64,000 nucleotides of DNA from Candidatus Enterousia sp. (GCA_045630455.1 JAZQTD010000039.1:6498-70497), one strand, 5' to 3'; counted from the first letter of the stretch, positions 4,012 to 64,000 are shown. The notes: generated by a model not told the origin, from the sequence alone. Translations and numbers: made by a program.

Positions 4012-5487
4012 CTACTTCATCATCGGGAATAGAACGATATCGCGCAGGGTTGGCTGATCAAAAATAATGCTTGCCAATCTGTCTACGCCCATACCGACAC
4101 CGGAAATTGGTGGAAAACCGTGTTCCATCGCACGAACAAAGTCGTTATCTGGATTAAATGCTTCTTCGTCACCATCGGCGATATTGCGTGCCTGTTCTTC
4201 GAATGCTGCCAATTGTTGGATTGGGTTTACAAGTTCTGAATACCCCTTGCAGATTTCAGCACCGCATACCAGCAACTGGTACATATCGATACGGCGTTCA
4301 TCCGCATCACTGCGGCGTGCCAATGGTACCATATACGCTGGATAGTTATACAAGATTGTTGGGTTTACAATGTCGTTGCGAATTTTACGCTTGTACACAT
4401 AGTCAACCAATGTTGGGATAGACTTTAAATCTTCCAATTCACTCATTGGGAACATACCCGCATCAACCAATTTCTGGCGCAGGGCATCGACATCGTCAAA
4501 GTCCAAGATATCACAGCCAAAGAATTCGTTCATCTTGGCGGTATAGTCAATCATTTCATATTTGCTGAAATCTAATTGTGTGCCTTGGTATTCGATTTGC
4601 AGTGTGCCACGGCATTTCATCAGCAATTCCTGGATTAATTCCCAAGTGAACTTGATATTGTCGTTATAATCCCAGTACGCCGCATACCATTCAACCATTG
4701 TAAATTCTTGCAGGTGGGTTGCATCCATACCTTCGTTGCGGAAGTCTTTGGCAACTTCGTACACACGGTCAAAGCCGGCACCGATTGCCTGCTTTAAGAA
4801 TAATTCTGGGGAAATACGCAGTTGGAAATCCGCATCCAGTGCATTGTGATGTGTTGTAAACGGACGCGCCGCCGCACCCGATGCGATATTCTGTAATACC
4901 GGTGTTTCTATTTCCAAGAAACCATTACGGTTCATATAATCACGCCAGTACTGGGTCATCTTGAATCGACCCAACAATGCATTGCGTGCCTCTGGATTTG
5001 AGATAATATCCAAATAACGCTGGCGATATCTGGTTTCCATATCGGTCAGCCCATGATACTTTTCAGGCAGTGGGCGCAAAGCCTTGGCCAGGATTTCATA
5101 GTTCGATACCTTTACCGTTAATTCGCCCGCCGTTGTATGATACAGTTCGCCTGTAATACCGATAAAGTCGCCCAAATCAACGTTAGCCTTCATAAACTTG
5201 TAGTTTTCTTCGCCCAATTCTTCGCGGGACATAGAAAACTGAATTTCGCCATCAATATCATAAATACGACCAAACATCAGTTTGCCCAACCAACGCAAAG
5301 CCGTTACACGACCCGCCAAGCGCACCGACGTGCCATCTACCAACTCTCGCGCCGCCACAATTGTATGTGTGCGGTCAAATTTGTCTTTCCATACAACACC
5401 GTCGCGCGCACGAATGTTTTCAGCCTTTTGCAGACGTGCCGTCAATTCATTGGTTGAAATCTGTGTATTTGTTGTATTTTCTGACAT
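4012..5487 (-). CDS. lysS: lysyl-tRNA synthetase, class II
   Basis: 491 aa with an OB-fold N-domain and class II motifs (FLEIETPVL, FRNEG, GVGMGVDRL). Confidence 0.95.
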   Translation of the reverse strand: MSENTTNTQISTNELTARLQKAENIRARDGVVWKDKFDRTHTIVAARELVDGTSVRLAGRVTALRWLGKLMFGRIYDIDGEIQFSMSREELGEENYKFMKANVDLGDFIGITGELYHTTAGELTVKVSNYEILAKALRPLPEKYHGLTDMETRYRQRYLDIISNPEARNALLGRFKMTQYWRDYMNRNGFLEIETPVLQNIASGAAARPFTTHHNALDADFQLRISPELFLKQAIGAGFDRVYEVAKDFRNEGMDATHLQEFTMVEWYAAYWDYNDNIKFTWELIQELLMKCRGTLQIEYQGTQLDFSKYEMIDYTAKMNEFFGCDILDFDDVDALRQKLVDAGMFPMSELEDLKSIPTLVDYVYKRKIRNDIVNPTILYNYPAYMVPLARRSDADERRIDMYQLLVCGAEICKGYSELVNPIQQLAAFEEQARNIADGDEEAFNPDNDFVRAMEHGFPPISGVGMGVDRLASIIFDQPTLRDIVLFPMMK

Positions 5488-5652: not shown

Positions 5653-5729
5653 TGGTGCGAGCAAAGGGGCTCGAACCCTCGACCTCAACCTTGGCAAGGT
5701 TGCGCTCTAGCCAACTGAGCTACGCTCGC
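5653..5729 (-). tRNA. tRNA-Gly (anticodon GCC), CCA encoded
   Basis: Hand-folded cloverleaf: GCGAGCG TA GCTC AGTTGGCTA GAGC G CAACC TTGCCAA GGTTG AGGTC GAGGG TTCGAGC CCCTT TGCTCGC A CCA. A hairpin plus T-run follows at about 5627-5647. Confidence 0.9.
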
Positions 5730-5787
5730 ATTGCGTGGTATATATTGACATATATTTTTTCGCTTTGCAAGTATTTTTTTTATTTTT

Positions 5788-6027
5788 TTACTTTTGATGC
5801 GATTTCATATACTCAAAACGCAATGAATCCAGTGTATACTGTTGCTTTGCAACCTCAAGACGCTGTTTGTTTATTTCCTTGTTCTCTCGCGTTGCTTGTT
5901 CCGTCGAACAAGTATTCAACGCAATCGCCAGCAATAAAACCATCCCTGCGGTAGCAATAGACCCACGCAACTTCACCTTGATTGGTTCATCGAACGTACC
6001 CTGCTCTATTTTTACTTTATTATCCAC
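5788..6027 (-). CDS. hypothetical small membrane protein
   Basis: 79-aa ORF with one TM (IATAGMVLLLAIAL). No family recognised. Confidence 0.4.
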   Translation of the reverse strand: MDNKVKIEQGTFDEPIKVKLRGSIATAGMVLLLAIALNTCSTEQATRENKEINKQRLEVAKQQYTLDSLRFEYMKSHQK

Positions 6028-9890: not shown

Positions 9891-10787
9891 TTACTTCTTA
9901 AACTCTAACCCTTGGTCGATATAGTTTTCTGCCTTTTCTTCCCAGTCAGGTTCAACACGAACAAACAAGTGCAGACGTGCGTTTACATCCCACTGGTCTT
10001 GGATATCGTGACGGGCCGCCGTTCCAATGCGTTTTAGTTGTTCGCCACCCTTACCCACGACTATCTTTTTATGTGCTTCGTTTTGAACTGCAATTTTTTG
10101 ATAGATATCCAGAACACCATCCGCATCAACATCAACACGTTCGGTCACAACGTTGATATGATACGGCAATTCTTGGTGGATATATTTATAAATCTTTTCA
10201 CGGGTCAATTCCGATAAATACAGTTCGTCCGGCACATCTGGCGCATCAACCGTATCAAATAAATATGGACTTTCGGGCATTACATCCGCCAATGCAGCCA
10301 GCATTTTTTCAACGCCGTCATTTTTCAGGGCTGAAATCATAAATATTTCACGCCACGGGGCCAGTTCGTTTAATTCTGCAACCATTGGTAGCAGTTCCAG
10401 TTTCGGAATTGCATCAACCTTGTTCAATGCGACAAAGATATTTGGGCGATCTGCAACCTTTTGCGCCAGTGTGCGAATTGTTTCAGTGATCCCCTTTTGC
10501 GCATCCACCAGTAACAATACCGCATCCGCATCTGCCACCGCATCCATAGCGGCCGCAACCATTGCCCTATCCAGACGACGAGACGGCTTAAACACGCCGG
10601 GAGTATCAACGAACACCAGCTGTTTCGCACCAACCATCTTAACCGCACGCAGGCGAGTTCTGGTCGTTTGCACTTTGTGCGAAACAATGGACACTTTGCG
10701 TCCCATAATTTGATTTAACAATGTACTTTTGCCCGCATTTGTCGGGCCGATAATGGCAACAAAGCCAGAGTATGTTTTTTCAGTCAT
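9891..10787 (-). CDS. era: GTPase Era
   Basis: G1 motif GFVAIIGPTNAGKSTLLN, DTPG, NKVD and a C-terminal KH domain. Start set at MTEKTYSGF. Confidence 0.95.
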   Translation of the reverse strand: MTEKTYSGFVAIIGPTNAGKSTLLNQIMGRKVSIVSHKVQTTRTRLRAVKMVGAKQLVFVDTPGVFKPSRRLDRAMVAAAMDAVADADAVLLLVDAQKGITETIRTLAQKVADRPNIFVALNKVDAIPKLELLPMVAELNELAPWREIFMISALKNDGVEKMLAALADVMPESPYLFDTVDAPDVPDELYLSELTREKIYKYIHQELPYHINVVTERVDVDADGVLDIYQKIAVQNEAHKKIVVGKGGEQLKRIGTAARHDIQDQWDVNARLHLFVRVEPDWEEKAENYIDQGLEFKK

Positions 10788-10897
10788 ACGCAAACAATAG
10801 CACACTAAAACCAAAAGTGAATAAAAATCTTGCAATTATGTGCGTGGATTTTCCATAATATGGATGTGAGTGGGGACAACAGAAAAGGATTATCAAA

Positions 10898-11611
10898 ATG
10901 CTGCTGACCGGACCAGAAATAAAAAAGCGTATGATGGGGAAAAATCCTGATATCGTAATTCGACCATTTGATGATAGATGTTTGGGGTCGAACAGTTATG
11001 ATTTGCACTTGGGCGATACGCTAAAGGTATATAAACACACAATCCCGTTTGGTATGAAACCGGCAATTGAGTACAAAGGCGCCCCAAAAGCACACACTAT
11101 GCGCGACTGGTTCGAATACAGTACACGATACGAAACATACAAATCAAATCCAAATGAATACGATATTCGTAATCCACGGTACTTGATTGACCCGACCAAT
11201 CCTGCACACCACGAAACAATTGATATAAAAATCCCTGAAACGGGACTGATTCTGTCGCCGGATGTTGGGTATTTGGGCTCGACAGTCGAATATACAGAAA
11301 CGCGTAATCTGTTCCCAGAAATTGACGGTAAATCCAGTATTGGGCGTAATTTTATACTAAATCATCATACAGCGGGACGTGGTGACGATGGATTCTGCGG
11401 TCAATGGACACTGGAAATACACGTTCTTTATCCGACTGTGGTTTATCCATATATGCGTATCGGTCAGATTTATTTCAAAGAATTTACAGGCGAACGTAAG
11501 CCGTATGATAAAAACCCAACCAGTCACTATAACGGGCAAATGGGGCCAACCCCCGCCGCACCAGTACCGGTTGACACATTTTTGAACGATTTAATTCAAA
11601 AACAAAAGTAA
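10898..11611 (+). CDS. dcd: dCTP deaminase / dUTPase-superfamily protein (long form)
   Basis: N-terminus MLLTGPEIKKRM...IRPFDDRCLGSNSYDLHLG resembles Dcd. The protein is longer (237 aa) than E. coli Dcd. Confidence 0.75.
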   Translation: MLLTGPEIKKRMMGKNPDIVIRPFDDRCLGSNSYDLHLGDTLKVYKHTIPFGMKPAIEYKGAPKAHTMRDWFEYSTRYETYKSNPNEYDIRNPRYLIDPTNPAHHETIDIKIPETGLILSPDVGYLGSTVEYTETRNLFPEIDGKSSIGRNFILNHHTAGRGDDGFCGQWTLEIHVLYPTVVYPYMRIGQIYFKEFTGERKPYDKNPTSHYNGQMGPTPAAPVPVDTFLNDLIQKQK

Positions 11612-56695: not shown

Positions 56696-56724
56696 TTGAC
56701 ACGGGGCAAAAATACATGTATAAT
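56696..56724 (+). promoter_or_regulatory. perfect-consensus sigma70 promoter of tRNA-Glu
   Basis: TTGACA-17 nt-TATAAT, ending 32 nt upstream of the tRNA 5' end. Confidence 0.55.
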
Positions 56725-56803
56725 TTGCCGGCGTTCGATAAGAACATGGCAGTTTTGGCCCCATCGTCTAGAGGCCTAGGACACCGCCCTTTCAAGGCGA
56801 GAA
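56722..56803 (+). repeat. 82-bp direct repeat, copy 1 (tRNA-Glu leader plus nt 1-47)
   Basis: Identical base for base to 61693-61774 by my own character comparison. Confidence 0.9.
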
Positions 56804-56832
56804 CACCGGTTCGAATCCGGTTGGGGCTGCCA
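56757..56832 (+). tRNA. tRNA-Glu (anticodon TTC), CCA encoded
   Basis: GGCCCCA TC GTCT AGAGGCCTA GGAC A CCGCC CTTTCAA GGCGA GAAC ACCGG TTCGAAT CCGGT TGGGGCT G CCA. Confidence 0.9.
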
Positions 56833-57183
56833 GAATAACAAAATCACCCAAACGGGTGATTTTTTATTTGTTTTCTAATACTTTCACAAGTTCGTAAGTT
56901 GGGTGGTAAAAAACATGCCCGTTTTGATAACTTTCGAACTTTTTATAAAAAAAGGTTAGAAATCTAACCTTTTGCTTTGTTCGAATTCGTAAAAGGCGAT
57001 ATAACTAATAGTATTAATTTATAAATCTGATTTTTCCATAATATACGATTTATGAAATCGGTATTTGATTAATCTCGTATTCAGTAGTTCTTTGGCCTTT
57101 TTGGTGTATAAAAATCACACGATTTTTGTTTACAAAATAATCCACATTGTGTACTATGTTTCACCGAACAAGGAAGAAATACA

Positions 57184-58101
57184 TTGTCTGACGTCGGTAT
57201 TTTATCGTCTGTTTTGTTGAATACCCTGATTATTGGTTCGGGTTATGCGATTGTCGCGATGGCTTTCCGCTTGATGTTTTCTGTATCTCCATTTTTTAAT
57301 ATGGCGTTGGGGGCATCGGTTGCATTGGGTGCATATCTGGGGTACGCGTTCTTGCCGATGTTTGGTATTTATGCGTATCCGTTGATTTTGGCGGGGGTGA
57401 TTTTATTTACCTGGGCCCAGGAAGCATTTATTTATCGCCCTATGCGACAATTTGGTGCAAGTCCAATGGTTTTATTGGTTGTATCATTGGGTGTTTATAC
57501 AATATTTGAATCGGTCATTCATTTGATATTTGGCCCGCAATATCAAACACTGGGAACGGTTGCGGAATTATCACAAATAAACCTGGGGTTTGCACATTTG
57601 CCATTGGTTCAATTGATTATAATCATATTGGGCGCATTATCGTTGGTTGGTATATACGTTTTGTTGCAAAAAACTTTCCTGGGTAAAGAAATTCGTGCAA
57701 TTGCACAAAATCCTGATTTAGCATTTACCACAGGCATAAACATCAATCGTGTTATCATCATTGTTTCCATAGTTGTTGGTGCAATATTGGGGGCATATGG
57801 TGTCTGTGTTGGATATGATACAGGTATGGAACCAACGATGGGATTTAACATTTTATTCAAAGGCATGATAGGCGCAATTATCGGCGGTCCAACGGTATTG
57901 GCGGCATATCTGGGTGCTATGGTATTGGCATTGGCGGAAAATATCGGTGTTTGGTTCTTTGCAAGTCAGTGGCGCGATTTAATCGCATTTGTGATATTTA
58001 TTTTGTTATTATGGTGGCAACCAAATGGAATATTTGTTCGCGCACCGAAAAAAGCTTCTTGTGAAATTAAACTAAATAAACCAAAAAGAAAAAGAAAATG
58101 A
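57184..58101 (+). CDS. livH: branched-chain amino acid ABC transporter permease (LivH-type)
   Basis: TTG start with RBS AGGAAG. 305 aa with about 8 TMs and an N-terminus LLNTLIIGSGYAIVAMAF typical of LivH. Confidence 0.8.
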   Translation: MSDVGILSSVLLNTLIIGSGYAIVAMAFRLMFSVSPFFNMALGASVALGAYLGYAFLPMFGIYAYPLILAGVILFTWAQEAFIYRPMRQFGASPMVLLVVSLGVYTIFESVIHLIFGPQYQTLGTVAELSQINLGFAHLPLVQLIIIILGALSLVGIYVLLQKTFLGKEIRAIAQNPDLAFTTGININRVIIIVSIVVGAILGAYGVCVGYDTGMEPTMGFNILFKGMIGAIIGGPTVLAAYLGAMVLALAENIGVWFFASQWRDLIAFVIFILLLWWQPNGIFVRAPKKASCEIKLNKPKRKRK

Positions 58102-59150
58102 AAAAACTTTTAATATCTGTGCTTGCTGCTTTGGCGGTTGCTGGATGCAGTAAAGATGATGAAAACACTATCAAAATTGGCGCTGTATTACCAATGACTG
58201 GTTCAAATGCCTCGGTCGGAGAATCTGTACGCGCGGGTATTGAAACCGCATTGGTGGATAAGACAAATACGAAATATAAATATAAAATTGTAATAGAAGA
58301 TGGTCAAGGCGCACCCGCGAAATCGGTCAGCGCAGCACAGAAATTGATATCTGCTGATTCTGTTAAGGTTTTAGTTTCTGCCTTAGCACACGTGGGTCGG
58401 TCAATGGTTCCTGTTGCTGAAAATGCAAATGTACTAAATCTGTGTGCCACATTAGAATCTGAAAACACAGAACCTTTGGGCAAAACAGGTTTTATCCAAG
58501 GCCCATCATTTGAAAGTTTCCACACAAGGACACTGAGTGCACTTAAAAAGAATAATGTGAAATCGATCGCGATCATCGCATCAAATGTTGGTGTTTCTTG
58601 CACTGGGTCGCAAGTATTGGGCAAAAAAATAAATGCGGCCGGCATCAAGGCCACAGTTGAATGCTTTAACCCCGGCGAACGTGACTTTAAATTTATTGCC
58701 GACAAATATAAAAATGTTGACGCGTATTATGTAAGCGCGTTCCCACCAGAGTCTGACATCGTTCTGCGCCAATTATATACAATGGGTATAGAGCGTAATC
58801 GTATTTACGGTCAAGGTTTAGATTTAAGTAGTGATACAGAAGTGTTCCAAGGGGTGAATCATATTATGGCCCAATGGGGAACACCAGAATTTATCGAACG
58901 TATAAACAAAGAATACAAATTAAAAAATATGAATCTTACATCCGCTGCTTACGACCTTGTATCACTAACAATTGATGCATTTGAAGCGGTTGGGCCAGAT
59001 AATATGGATGCAGTTTATGATTATATCAGACAACATGCGACAAGGGATTGTATGTCGGGAACATGCAAACTGTTGCCAAACGGCTTTATTGTAAATGAAG
59101 CAGAATGGCGCACTTATAAAGATGGCAAAACAATAGTTTTTGAGAAATAA
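58098..59150 (+). CDS. ABC transporter substrate-binding lipoprotein (LivK/Peripla_BP_6-type)
   Basis: Lipobox LAVAGC. IKIGAVLPMTGSNASVGES is the typical type-I periplasmic binding protein N-terminus. Confidence 0.75.
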   Translation: MKKLLISVLAALAVAGCSKDDENTIKIGAVLPMTGSNASVGESVRAGIETALVDKTNTKYKYKIVIEDGQGAPAKSVSAAQKLISADSVKVLVSALAHVGRSMVPVAENANVLNLCATLESENTEPLGKTGFIQGPSFESFHTRTLSALKKNNVKSIAIIASNVGVSCTGSQVLGKKINAAGIKATVECFNPGERDFKFIADKYKNVDAYYVSAFPPESDIVLRQLYTMGIERNRIYGQGLDLSSDTEVFQGVNHIMAQWGTPEFIERINKEYKLKNMNLTSAAYDLVSLTIDAFEAVGPDNMDAVYDYIRQHATRDCMSGTCKLLPNGFIVNEAEWRTYKDGKTIVFEK

Positions 59151-59151
59151 A

Positions 59152-60018
59152 ATGGAATATTTGATAAACCTGGGGATTTTGTTCTGTATATATGGCGTAT
59201 TGGCTCTGAGCCTTAACATGGTGGTGGGTATGACAGGGTTGCTATCGTTAGGTCATGCCGCATTCTTTGGTATCGGTGCGTATGCCACCGCCATAGTCAT
59301 GACAGAATTCGGGGTGAATTTCTTTGTGTCATTGTTAATTGGTGCAATTATCAATATTGCCGTCGCATATTTCGTTGGTAAAATATTATCTAGATTCAAC
59401 GGTGGATATTATTCTATTGTGTCTGCGGGATTGGCAATAATCGTGTATTCTTTGCTGTTAAATTGGAAAGATTTAACCAATGGTCCGCTGGGTATTTTTG
59501 CTATTCCAAAACCTTACGCTTTTGGCATAGCGATTGATTCAAATTCTGCATTTTTCGTTTTGTCTTTGATTGTGTTGGCTTTGATTTTCGCGCTGTATCG
59601 ATACATTGATAAATCTTCGTATGGTCGCGGTCTAAAAGCAATTCGTGAAGACGAACAATTGGCGGTGGTCATGGGGTATCCTGCGCACCGTATGAAAACG
59701 GTTATATTCTTGTTGTCTGCGGCAATTGCGGGAATTGCCGGGGCATTATTTGCATCATACATCGCGTTTATAGACCCCAGCACTTTCCAGGTTCACGAAA
59801 GTATATTCCTATTCACAATTATAATCATTGGTGGACTGGCATCCAGTGTAGGCAGTATAGTCGGTGCATTGATATTACTCAGTTTGCCAGAGGTTTTGCG
59901 TTTTGTTGGGCTGCCATACGAAACGGCGGCACAATTGCAACAGATAATTTATGGACTTGCTCTGATTTTGATTATGGTTTATAAACCACGCGGATTGTTT
60001 GGAAAATATAGGATGTAA
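59152..60018 (+). CDS. livM: branched-chain amino acid ABC transporter permease (LivM-type)
   Basis: GLLSLGHAAFFGIGAY and AIREDE motifs. Confidence 0.8.
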   Translation: MEYLINLGILFCIYGVLALSLNMVVGMTGLLSLGHAAFFGIGAYATAIVMTEFGVNFFVSLLIGAIINIAVAYFVGKILSRFNGGYYSIVSAGLAIIVYSLLLNWKDLTNGPLGIFAIPKPYAFGIAIDSNSAFFVLSLIVLALIFALYRYIDKSSYGRGLKAIREDEQLAVVMGYPAHRMKTVIFLLSAAIAGIAGALFASYIAFIDPSTFQVHESIFLFTIIIIGGLASSVGSIVGALILLSLPEVLRFVGLPYETAAQLQQIIYGLALILIMVYKPRGLFGKYRM

Positions 60019-60020
60019 AA

Positions 60021-60752
60021 TTGGCGGAAATTAAAATAACACATTTAACAAAAGCATTTGGCGGATTGCGTGCCGTTGATGATTTATCTATATCGATTAT
60101 GGTGGGCAAAACCACAGGTCTGATCGGTCCAAATGGTTCTGGTAAAACAACATTGATGAATTTGATTTCTGGCCTTTATAAACCAGATTGTGGAACAATA
60201 ACAATAGAAAACCAAACTTTTGATTCAATTGACCCTATAAAATTGCGTGCATTGCATATTGCGCGTACTTTCCAAGACGGGCGTTTGATAAACCAATTGT
60301 CGGTTGATGATAATTTATTATTGCCAATTGCTGAAACAAGTGTGTTGAAATCACTACGCCAATTCAAAACAAACGAAATGCAAAAATGCGTCAATGCCAT
60401 ATTAGAAAAGGTAGGCCTAACATCGCACCGGCATAAATTGGCAGAAGAATTGTCTTATGGTCAGCGTAAATTGCTGGAATTGGGACGCGCATTGATTCAA
60501 GATGCAGATATATATTTACTGGACGAACCGTTTTCTGGATTACAAGAAAAAATGGTTGAACATGTTCTGGCCTTGATTGGCGAATTGAAAAAACAAAAGA
60601 AAACGGTTGTGATTATTGAACACAATATGGGACTCATAAAACAATTGTCCGACCATATTATCGTTCTGGACCATGGGGCATTACTGGCATCTGGCAAACC
60701 GGATGCAGTGTTAAAAAATAAATCAGTTCAACAAGCATACCTGGGGGTGTAA
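60021..60752 (+). CDS. livG: ABC transporter ATP-binding protein (LivG-type)
   Basis: Walker A GPNGSGKTT, signature LSYGQRKLLEL, Walker B IYLLDEP. TTG start. Confidence 0.85.
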   Translation: MAEIKITHLTKAFGGLRAVDDLSISIMVGKTTGLIGPNGSGKTTLMNLISGLYKPDCGTITIENQTFDSIDPIKLRALHIARTFQDGRLINQLSVDDNLLLPIAETSVLKSLRQFKTNEMQKCVNAILEKVGLTSHRHKLAEELSYGQRKLLELGRALIQDADIYLLDEPFSGLQEKMVEHVLALIGELKKQKKTVVIIEHNMGLIKQLSDHIIVLDHGALLASGKPDAVLKNKSVQQAYLGV

Positions 60753-60753
60753 A

Positions 60754-61452
60754 ATGTTAGTATTAAAAAACATTTCTGCGGGGTATGGTAAAAAGGCGAT
60801 ATTGAACAATATATCTGTTCAATTTCGTGATAATTGTATAACTGTGATTATGGGGGCAAATGGTGCCGGAAAATCCACATTGTTAAAAACTGCATTTGGT
60901 GTGATAAAGCCGATGGGTGGCGAAATATATTTGGACGGTAAAAAAATTCACCCCACACCGCAAAATTTGGTGAAAAATGGCATTTGTTTTATTCCACAAC
61001 GTGATAGAGTGTTCCCAGAAATGTCTGTGTTGGAAAATTTGGAATTGGCAACACATTCGTGGGCAGACCGGTCGTTATTTCCACAATATTTGGATGATGT
61101 TTTGGAATTTTTCCCAGATTTGCGTACAAAATTAGACAATATGGCGGGTGAATTATCTGGGGGGCAACAACAAATTGTCGCTTTGGCGCGCGGTTTAATC
61201 AGCAAACCAAAGATGATTTTAATGGATGAGCCATCGATTGGCCTGTCGCCAAAGTTGATAAATGATGTATTTCATAAAATCAAAGATTTGCAAAAACATA
61301 CTGGCACAGCATTCGTAATCGTGGAACATAACTTGAAAACTTTATTACCATTAACAGATTATGCATATATCCTGCAAGATGGGCGGGTTGCATACGATGG
61401 TAAATCCAACGGCAAAACACTTGAAAAAATGGTGTCTGTGGTATTTAAGTGA
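60754..61452 (+). CDS. livF: ABC transporter ATP-binding protein (LivF-type)
   Basis: Walker A GANGAGKST, signature LSGGQQQ, Walker B ILMDEPS. Confidence 0.85.
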   Translation: MLVLKNISAGYGKKAILNNISVQFRDNCITVIMGANGAGKSTLLKTAFGVIKPMGGEIYLDGKKIHPTPQNLVKNGICFIPQRDRVFPEMSVLENLELATHSWADRSLFPQYLDDVLEFFPDLRTKLDNMAGELSGGQQQIVALARGLISKPKMILMDEPSIGLSPKLINDVFHKIKDLQKHTGTAFVIVEHNLKTLLPLTDYAYILQDGRVAYDGKSNGKTLEKMVSVVFK

Positions 61453-61692
61453 TATTCTAATAAAACCTCTTTATTGTTATATAAAACACCTGCCACGGCT
61501 TGAATTTTGCTTGTTTATGTGCGTTTTTTGCGTACTTTTGCTTTTTTTGGCGTTAAAATTTACTTAGGTTAAAGCAATAAAGTGAAACCATAACTAAAAA
61601 CAAAAGGCTATAAAATGAAACAACAGTCAAATCTTTTGAAACAATTCTAGGTATGGATGGAGCGGCGTGGATATTCCAAAACCACTAAATCA

Positions 61693-61774
61693 AATTTGCC
61701 GGCGTTCGATAAGAACATGGCAGTTTTGGCCCCATCGTCTAGAGGCCTAGGACACCGCCCTTTCAAGGCGAGAA
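61693..61774 (+). repeat. 82-bp direct repeat, copy 2
   Basis: Identical to 56722-56803. The consensus -35 box and the first three bases of the -10 box of copy 1 are not duplicated. Confidence 0.9.
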
Positions 61775-61861
61775 TACACAATTAGAAAAATCTTAAAAAA
61801 TCGACTTGGGAGATTTTTGATTTTTATTATTGAGTATCGAGGGGCGATATTGGGGCTGCCA
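61728..61861 (+). pseudogene. tRNA-Glu pseudogene / interrupted copy (T-arm replaced by 75 nt)
   Basis: nt 1-47 are identical to tRNA-Glu. Unrelated AT-rich sequence then occupies 61775-61849 where C47 and the T-arm should be. The 3' acceptor end TTGGGGCTGCCA follows at 61850-61861. Confidence 0.6.
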
Positions 61862-61910: not shown

Positions 61911-61938
61911 TTGACATTCTGTTTTTTTGTACTATACT
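61911..61938 (+). promoter_or_regulatory. sigma70-like promoter
   Basis: TTGACA-16 nt-TATACT upstream of the 105-aa ORF. Confidence 0.4.
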
Positions 61939-61984
61939 TTAGATAAGAACTACAAGACAACTAATTACAAAAAAAGGATAATAA

Positions 61985-62302
61985 ATGTCAAAAACAACCG
62001 AACCAGCAACAAAGAGCTTCGCTATCGGTCTGATCGTATCCCTGATGACATTTGGCGCTTCTATGTCTTATGCGATTTCAGATGCAAAAAAATCTGAATC
62101 AGACGATGGAGCCGAACAGGTTGCAATATCCGAATCCTCTTCTGCTCTAACAAAGGGCGATGGTATCGTTTCGGCTATTTTGCTTTGTGGTGCACTTTCC
62201 GCTTTTTGTGGCTTACCAGCAATGGCTGTTGCTGATAAAATAGAAGCAAAAAAGAAAGCGAAAAATGTCGCACTTCAACAGTTAAAACAGAACCAACATT
62301 AA
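61985..62302 (+). CDS. hypothetical membrane protein
   Basis: 105 aa, RBS AAAGGA, two hydrophobic segments and a basic C-terminus. Confidence 0.45.
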   Translation: MSKTTEPATKSFAIGLIVSLMTFGASMSYAISDAKKSESDDGAEQVAISESSSALTKGDGIVSAILLCGALSAFCGLPAMAVADKIEAKKKAKNVALQQLKQNQH

Positions 62303-62356
62303 TCATTTAAAACACATGTCTAGTCAATAAAAGAATCTGGACAAGGTCGTTTTTGA

Positions 62357-64000
<1,644 letters not shown>

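Follow-up and report, generated by a model that had tools for sequence, protein, structure and literature searches.

The attachment sites that tRNA-targeting integrases use were reportedly sorted into sublocation classes by Williams in 2002. Tycheposon islands, known from Prochlorococcus, are built from elements that insert at the proximal tRNA, bring nutrient-uptake cargo with them, and leave partial tRNAs behind (Hackl et al., 10.1101/2020.12.28.424599). The locus described here lies in a 64,000-nucleotide (nt) stretch of DNA (JAZQTD010000039.1:6498-70497; hereafter the window) of Candidatus Enterousia, gut bacteria whose genomes measure about 1 Mb. In it, an 82-nt direct repeat made of the leader and the 5' part of tRNA-Glu(UUC) brackets a five-gene ABC transporter operon of the branched-chain amino acid type (liv); the first copy (copy 1) belongs to an intact tRNA gene, and the second (copy 2) to a broken one. 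The structure is an ordinary product of duplication and decay in a tRNA-linked array of gene cassettes, and neither a new integration site nor a split tRNA; copy 2 is in all probability what remains of a second tRNA-Glu gene, made and broken by two illegitimate events.

The locus resembles tycheposon islands in several respects: the genome is streamlined, a variable array stands beside an intact tRNA gene, nutrient-uptake cargo occurs in few genomes, and partial tRNA copies occur throughout the array, with older cassettes displaced outward from the tRNA. It differs from them in that the liv cassette (56833-61692) has neither a tRNA-specific tyrosine recombinase nor a replication module, and in that the bracketing repeat is the 5' part of the tRNA plus leader, arising by illegitimate recombination, and not a 3' copy of an attachment (att) site. 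As at classical attL/attR sites, direct copies of the tRNA 3' end mark borders here (61850-61861 and 62366-62377), but the 82-nt repeat holds the 5' part and does not belong to this class of site. Another likeness is to microhomology-mediated segmental duplication followed by decay, with joints of 8 and 6 nt, identifiable parents, and a copy that is intact in one lineage and broken in the other. Unlike in the usual cases of this kind, the duplicated gene is the only one for tRNA-Glu(UUC), and decay of the distal copy leaves the product of a deletion without this tRNA.

The window is part of a metagenome-assembled genome (MAG; G000) of 48 contigs and 1.2 Mb that is 94% complete. We called tRNA genes with ARAGORN and the Rfam tRNA model, and protein domains with Pfam (Table 1). 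The predicted perfect repeat was borne out, as positions 56722-56803 and 61693-61774 do not differ at any of their 82 nt, and an extended alignment still matches at 84 of 85 nt; each copy holds 35 nt of leader and positions 1-47 of the tRNA. Both copies had also been described correctly with respect to their promoters: copy 1 is an intact tRNA-Glu gene, called by ARAGORN and Rfam, whose sigma-70-type promoter matches the consensus at 12 of 12 positions, while copy 2, which begins at the AAT of the -10 box, has no -35 box and a truncated -10 box. Run on both loci, ARAGORN called copy 1 alone, the Rfam tRNA model did not call copy 2 either, and a promoter scan found no promoter belonging to copy 2. 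In the whole assembly, ARAGORN called one UUC and one CUC gene for tRNA-Glu. The predicted fold of copy 2 has no T-arm and a broken anticodon stem, and so does not form the cloverleaf with T-arm of a functional tRNA; the T-arm is missing and not displaced. After tRNA position 47, copy 2 continues for 75 AT-rich nt (61775-61849) and ends with TTGGGGCTGCCA (61850-61861).

The state from which such a copy could have decayed turned out to exist in a relative. We searched 299 genomes of the family, G000 included, for the joints at the two edges of copy 2. In G126 (MAG RGIG9479, from yak caecum; liv locus L083, contig JAGBVH010000019.1), two 76-nt tRNA-Glu(UUC) genes called by ARAGORN (L083:3109-3184 and 10745-10820) stand around a liv operon that is 86.7% identical to that of the window. 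The second of them is preceded by the same remnant of a 96-amino-acid (aa) gene and by the same joint as copy 2, and the repeat in this genome is perfect over 114 nt, from the same AATTTGCC through the whole tRNA. Between G000 and G126, the leaders show three substitutions and one indel, yet within each genome they are identical, a pattern that indicates concerted evolution of the copies, presumably by gene conversion. The original prediction had listed, among other possibilities, an old duplication of tRNA-Glu with gene conversion, which is essentially right, and had named in advance two intact tRNA-Glu genes flanking the liv operon in a relative as the state that would point to simple decay of one copy. 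This state is what G126 presents, and the more unusual readings fall with it.

The left edge of copy 2 lies within a protein gene. The 240-nt remnant region between the last ATPase gene and copy 2 (61453-61700) has matches in other genomes, and its part from 61615 to 61700 is identical at 70 of 86 nt, in the same frame, to an intact 96-aa gene of G207, up to and including AATTTGCC; beyond AATTTGCC the sequence is that of the tRNA-Glu leader. The remnant translates as MKQQSNLLKQF*VWMERRGYSKTTKSNLP, against MKQQSNLLKQFQVWMEQKGYKKTTQSNLP in the intact gene. By translation, the gene is intact in G207 and G057, where the match covers the promoter and the start and a DUF3768 gene comes next; its start is also matched at the DNA level in G119, G174, and G262. 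Since AATTTGCC is present in both parents and the edge falls inside a truncated gene, the left edge of copy 2 is a joint of illegitimate recombination within that gene and not an attachment site. The joint was restricted to G000 and G126 among the family genomes, and a scan of metagenomes for it (CTAAATCAAATTTGCCGGCG) gave four matches, all of them unrelated and due to chance. In G207, the intact gene is followed by the DUF3768 gene, a weak Rep-like open reading frame (ORF), and a C-5 cytosine methylase (L100:8457-9966), and these neighbors suggest that the truncated gene was derived from a small mobile or plasmid-like element.

The right edge was found at a second microhomology, CGAGAA, at which the tRNA parent reads AAGG-CGAGAA-CAC, the foot of a hairpin AATA-CGAGAA-TAC, and the canonical modules behind tRNA-Glu ...GGCGAATA-CGAGAA-TACAC. 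The 75 nt that follow had been taken for unrelated sequence; the divergence after position 47 stands, but the sequence is a copy of a multicopy hairpin module. When 40 relatives were searched with copy 2 as the query, 61769-61842 matched many sites, as many as 14 in one genome, and contig ends were frequent among them. The anatomy of the module, here called type A, was read from 38 copies. A tRNA gene and its terminator are followed by an inverted copy of the tRNA 3' end that stops at the T-loop GGAT, then by a short stem with covarying sides (CGCCA/TGGCG, GGTCA/TGACC, and CACCA/TGGTG), a long hairpin (CGAGAATACACAATTAGAAAAATC...GATTTTTATTATTGTGTATCGAGG), and a linker only a few bases long. 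The unit closes with the final 12 to 19 nt of the same tRNA, CCA included, repeated in direct orientation, and with a further terminator. Modules of this kind were found behind at least 10 tRNA species (Glu, two Gln, three Ser, His, Pro, Arg, and Tyr). We scored the 23 of them that have a tRNA no more than 450 nt upstream, and in 15 the copy of the tRNA end was perfect (12/12); in 2000 random trials, such copies numbered 6.3 on average and never more than 10.

The hairpin of the window (CGAGAATACACAATTAG...TTGTGTATCGAGG) aligns over its full length with 25 other distinct type-A copies, and in the alignment of these 26 hairpins, 5 of the 14 predicted pairs stay paired through double changes. 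TTGGGGCTGCCA starts 7 nt past the hairpin, within the 1 to 19 nt at which a type-A module carries its copy of the tRNA end, and the linker is GGCGATA in the window and GGCGATG in relatives, GGCGAT(A/G) being of the tRNA-Glu type. The inverted copy of the tRNA end and the short stem are lacking from the module of the window, the 5' part of the tRNA being fused straight at CGAGAA. On these comparisons, copy 2 is a tRNA 5' part joined to the 3' half of a Glu-type module. The anatomy of the module and the linker together show that the 12-nt end, which the original prediction regarded as the authentic 3' acceptor end of the tRNA gene, is the module's own copy. Copy 2 is thus a pseudogene chimera rather than an att site or a tRNA with an intron or without a T-arm. 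The proposal of an interrupted tRNA gene finds no support: the T-arm is missing rather than displaced, and the fusion of tRNA positions 1-47 to the hairpin was present in none of the 298 other family genomes.

Units of a similar layout are known from Escherichia coli. In the RtT units behind tyrT-tyrV (rttR, RF00391), read directly, we found an inverted partial copy of the T-stem and acceptor (GGGGAAGGAT) and a 19-nt copy of the tRNA end including CCA. The Enterousia modules likewise trail a tRNA and carry inverted and direct copies of its end in the same order, but the type-A hairpin has no counterpart in RtT, and RtT stands behind a single tRNA species. RF00391 gave no match at an E value of 1 or lower in the region of the window or in 15 module-bearing loci, and no Rfam family matched the hairpin or the modules. 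A full-length match of IS128 (RF00125) remained below threshold (32 bits against a gathering score of 80) and was rejected as spurious, the E. coli IS128 adjoining timP/sseB with no tRNA near, and a weak match of Phe_leader was put down to noise. Insertion of a miniature inverted-repeat transposable element (MITE) into the tRNA was likewise rejected, since a target-site duplication is lacking and the T-arm is gone rather than displaced. As to the strand on which the module acts, wobble pairs gave an equivocal picture, with G-T pairs in the short stem on the plus strand and, in the hairpin, A-C mismatches that would be G-U on the minus strand.

We then sought copy 2 in metagenome assemblies of other samples by exact-protein look-up. 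Two contigs were found, ERZ28633867 scaffold_5913 (98.8% identity to the window over 5.2 kb) and ERZ27297729 k141_341570 (99.1% over 3.0 kb), and both run from livF through the gene remnant, the 82 nt, the hairpin, the copy of the tRNA end, and the 105-aa ORF to ligA. Across the three strains, copy 2 is unchanged save for a 1-nt indel in the hairpin. Because two independent assemblies show the same copy 2, the chimera is not an assembly artifact; it is real and occurs in no fewer than three strains. Six further proteins, used in the same kind of look-up, gave either no match or nothing but short contigs that do not extend to copy 1. With the path from livF through the 82 nt and the hairpin to ligA fixed, the promoter side can join only the T-arm side.

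The explanation we favor is that of a tRNA-Glu-linked array in which the liv-type operon is one cassette whose distal end once bore a second, complete tRNA-Glu gene. In a first step, illegitimate recombination at AATTTGCC would have linked the 96-aa accessory gene, at about codon 29, to the tRNA-Glu leader at position -35, a product that would survive, with both tRNA genes intact, in G126. In a second step, in the species of G000, a fusion mediated by CGAGAA would have connected tRNA position 47 to the 3' half of a tRNA-Glu-type module, with loss of everything from the T-arm to the hairpin; the deletion would amount to about 180 nt if the module trailed the tRNA as it does in G023, and would be larger otherwise. 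Gene conversion would keep the two 82-nt copies identical. Two features expected of duplication and decay are in fact seen, namely microhomology joints with two parents each and a redundant copy that is intact in G126 behind the same joint. When the 5' part of a tRNA is repeated on both sides of an operon, this need not mean a new mechanism of integration or a split tRNA: the present repeat can be traced base by base to what appear to be two illegitimate recombination events, with the intermediate alive in a related species.

Several observations weigh against this explanation. No genome shows the immediate precursor, in which a second intact tRNA-Glu gene would be followed at this place by the hairpin module, and the second copy of G126 is followed by a terminator and a conserved motif, not by a module. 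About 173 nt just before copy 2 are some 99% identical between G000 and G126, the operon being only 87% identical, which simple decay leaves unexplained; the stretch (61520-61692 against L083:10536-10710) is noncoding and holds the promoter and the broken start of the 96-aa gene, and the tRNA leader is 89% identical. Either a recent exchange or an unexplained constraint could account for it. The left half of the locus, with the promoter, the intact tRNA gene, and liv, rests on one assembly and on the logic of the assembly graph. Finally, it is not clear that G126 and G000 are sisters (LigA identity is 82%, compared with 79 to 81% for four other species), and shared descent cannot therefore be separated from cassette transfer.

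Such a transfer is the alternative that survives best, although we regard it as possible rather than probable. The cassette would move between species as a unit with its promoterless tRNA-Glu copy and insert at the resident tRNA-Glu by homologous recombination of the Campbell type. This would explain why the left joint is common to two species that are not obviously sisters, why three species have liv at tRNA-Glu and another four have it at tRNA-Tyr, why the segment just before copy 2 is about 99% identical between species, and why the terminator after copy 1 of G000 is that found after the second copy of G126. The operon, however, is too divergent, at 87% identity, for a recent transfer of the whole unit; no circular form was seen and the cassette carries no transfer machinery, and the differences between the leaders of the two genomes would still call for later gene conversion.

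That the liv segment is an integrase-driven island, with the 5' two-thirds of tRNA-Glu plus leader as its att site and the 82-nt repeats as attL and attR, is in our view very improbable. A direct repeat does bracket cargo that most relatives lack (the gene for the liv binding protein was detected in none of 60 further genomes sampled from the genus), and islands bearing an integrase do occur at tRNA-Glu in the genus, as in G006 with its 195-aa tyrosine recombinase. On its left, however, the repeat begins at a microhomology within a protein gene that has been cut short; on its right it is fused to an unrelated module; and in G126 it is 114 nt long with another right end, so that the repeat does not behave as a recombination core. 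Pfam found only ABC transporter domains, and no integrase, between the repeats, and the other cassettes of the array are bounded by copies of the tRNA 3' end and not of its 5' end. The same edges, at 8 and 6 nt of microhomology, and the lack of an integrase leave the idea of an island with an unusual crossover point unsupported.

Equally hard to credit is a working, noncanonical RNA gene in copy 2, whether a tRNA-Glu with the hairpin in place of its T-arm or a tRNA-like regulatory RNA. In its favor, closure of the acceptor stem is still possible, the fold is somewhat more stable than shuffled sequence (z = -2.5), and the constancy of copy 2 in three strains, with its single indel in the hairpin, would fit a functional product. 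Yet both finders miss it, its anticodon stem is broken in the predicted fold, no promoter belongs to it, the fusion occurs in no other genome of the family, and each of its two parts has ordinary, separate homologues elsewhere. A misresolved or collapsed repeat in a MAG of 48 contigs, whose hairpin element is often found at contig ends in relatives, is scarcely tenable, as two assemblies from other samples, one of them made with k = 141, independently join livF, the 82 nt, the hairpin, and ligA, and G126 independently shows the left joint.

The duplication and decay outlined above bear on the fate of the cargo. It had been suggested that the perfect repeat makes the operon deletable by homologous recombination. 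This is formally true, yet misleading: the product would consist of the promoter, tRNA positions 1-47, and the hairpin as the only UUC gene, and loss of liv through the repeats would therefore probably be lethal in G000 and viable in G126. Once the distal copy had decayed, recombination between the repeats could presumably no longer shed the cargo without killing the cell.

We also examined the liv operon and the wider array. Five transporter genes do lie between the two copies, but not exactly so as had been stated, since the 4.9 kb also hold about 350 nt of conserved noncoding sequence on the left (a terminator, a motif, and a second terminator, 56833-56990) and, on the right, the remnant of another gene. 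Homology with G019 and G016 past tRNA-Glu extends through these three elements to about 56990. The GC content of liv (0.395, against 0.42 +/- 0.023 for the genome; 13th percentile) does not discriminate. Homologues of liv were found in six MAGs, beside tRNA-Glu in two and beside tRNA-Gly/tRNA-Tyr in four, and two of the loci (L081 and L084) have hairpin modules; an amino acid transporter operon is thus movable cargo in the tRNA-linked cassette arrays of Candidatus Enterousia. Among species representatives there was no clean empty site, the region downstream of tRNA-Glu and that upstream of ligA not being syntenic in five relatives.

Table 1. Features at and around the two tRNA-Glu copies (positions counted from the first nucleotide of the window)
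Feature	Position	Strand	Remarks
tRNA-Glu promoter	56696-56724	+	TTGACA-17-TATAAT, 12/12; kept in relatives; repeat starts at AAT of -10 box
Repeat copy 1	56722-56803	+	35-nt leader plus tRNA-Glu 1-47; identical to 61693-61774
Intact tRNA-Glu(UUC)	56757-56832	+	ARAGORN; Rfam tRNA, 56 bits; sole UUC gene of the assembly
tRNA-Glu terminator	56840-56863	+	Identical sequence behind second tRNA-Glu of G126
Conserved post-tRNA motif	56872-56944	+	Inverted repeat TTTCACAAGTTCGTAAGT ... CTTTCGAACTTTT; opens each tRNA-Glu array cassette in relatives
Second terminator	56950-56973	+	After the conserved motif
Five-gene branched-chain-amino-acid-type ABC operon (liv)	57184-61452	+	Pfam; cargo
liv permease	57184-58101	+	BPD_transp_2
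liv binding protein	58098-59150	+	Peripla_BP_6
Second liv permease	59140-60018	+	BPD_transp_2
Two liv ATPases	60021-60752, 60754-61452	+	ABC ATPases (Pfam)
5' remnant of 96-aa gene	61615-61700	+	About 29 codons, in-frame TAG at codon 12, ends at AATTTGCC; upstream region 61453-61614
Left joint	61693-61700	+	8-nt microhomology AATTTGCC, common to 96-aa gene and tRNA-Glu leader; same joint in G126
Repeat copy 2	61693-61774	+	Leader plus tRNA-Glu 1-47; no -35 box, truncated -10 box; also in L125 and L126
Right joint	61769-61774	+	6-nt microhomology CGAGAA, in tRNA (GGCGAGAAcAC) and hairpin module (TACGAGAAtAC)
Long AT-rich hairpin, 3' half of type-A module	61769-61842	+	Up to 14 copies per genome in relatives; compensatory changes in 5/14 predicted pairs
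Glu-type linker and module's direct copy of tRNA-Glu 3' end	61843-61861	+	Linker GGCGATA; TTGGGGCTGCCA at 61850-61861
Next cassette	61911-62302	+	Promoter 61911-61938; ORF of 105-aa predicted membrane protein 61985-62302, no Pfam match
Third tRNA-Glu-end remnant and terminator	62355-62402	+	GAATTGCACAG-ATGGCCCTGCCA 62355-62377, terminator 62388-62402; just upstream of ligA
ligA	62501-64000	+	True start 62501; ORF from 62366 is an artificial N-terminal extension across the remnant

Since a cassette end with a terminator stands at 62355-62377, the 105-aa ORF forms a separate cassette; this type of end also closes two cassettes of G126 (L083:4160-4188 and 5700-5727). In G126, the conserved motif stands at the start of each of four cassettes, two of which end in GTTCGTGAATTGCACNG-ATGGC(C/A)CTGCCA. 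The motif, of about 75 nt with the inverted repeat GTTCGTAAGT...ACTTACGAAC, occurs there at L083:3225-3300, 4225-4300, 5770-5845, and 10860-10935. Placed after a terminator, it opens the cassettes of tRNA-Glu arrays and also those of at least one tRNA-Tyr and one tRNA-Pro array, and is present in a single copy in G000.

The hairpin element breaks short-read assemblies of Candidatus Enterousia, as its frequent position at contig ends shows; in G002, G007, G018, G021, and G024, copies often lie within the first or last 150 nt of contigs. For the tRNA-trailing modules, the locus of G000 is one more data point, here with a broken copy. The tRNA-matched modules may be more than scars, although we consider this rather unlikely: as single-stranded RNA or DNA structures that mimic the 3' end of a tRNA gene, they might direct the insertion or exchange of cassettes and act as a programmable attachment system that builds the arrays. 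If that were so, the chimera of G000 would be a by-product that locks the liv cassette in place, its loss destroying the only tRNA-Glu(UUC) gene.

Modules of a second type, 165 to 200 nt long, were noted four times in G000, on contigs C43 (behind tRNA-Ser GGA and tRNA-Lys UUU), C44 (tRNA-Cys), and C48 (tRNA-Met). They consist of a terminator, a hairpin containing GGTTCG, and a conserved GGGGCCCAT...ATGGG, and they close with 18 to 19 nt repeated from the 3' end of the tRNA. Only behind tRNA-Lys was part of an inverted copy visible by eye, and none reached 12/15 in the scoring. In layout they are comparable to the RtT units of E. coli, but RF00391 gives no match to them.

Tyrosine recombinases occur elsewhere in these genomes. 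The 195-aa enzyme of G006 (L034:5166-5753, minus strand of the locus) comprises the catalytic domain only and lies directly downstream of tRNA-Glu, and the far end of its island bears the 3' end of the other tRNA-Glu sequence variant of the genus; contig C13 of G000 carries a 175-aa gene similar to it. In G000 there are five tyrosine recombinases (PF00589), all on contigs other than that of the window. Three are not Xer-like, and two of these stand beside tRNA genes. Tyrosine recombinases of about 420 to 440 aa at C30:77241-77729 and C3:38177-38683 lie within about 1 kb of tRNA-Arg(UCU) and tRNA-Asn, and these two loci are probably ordinary tRNA-linked islands.

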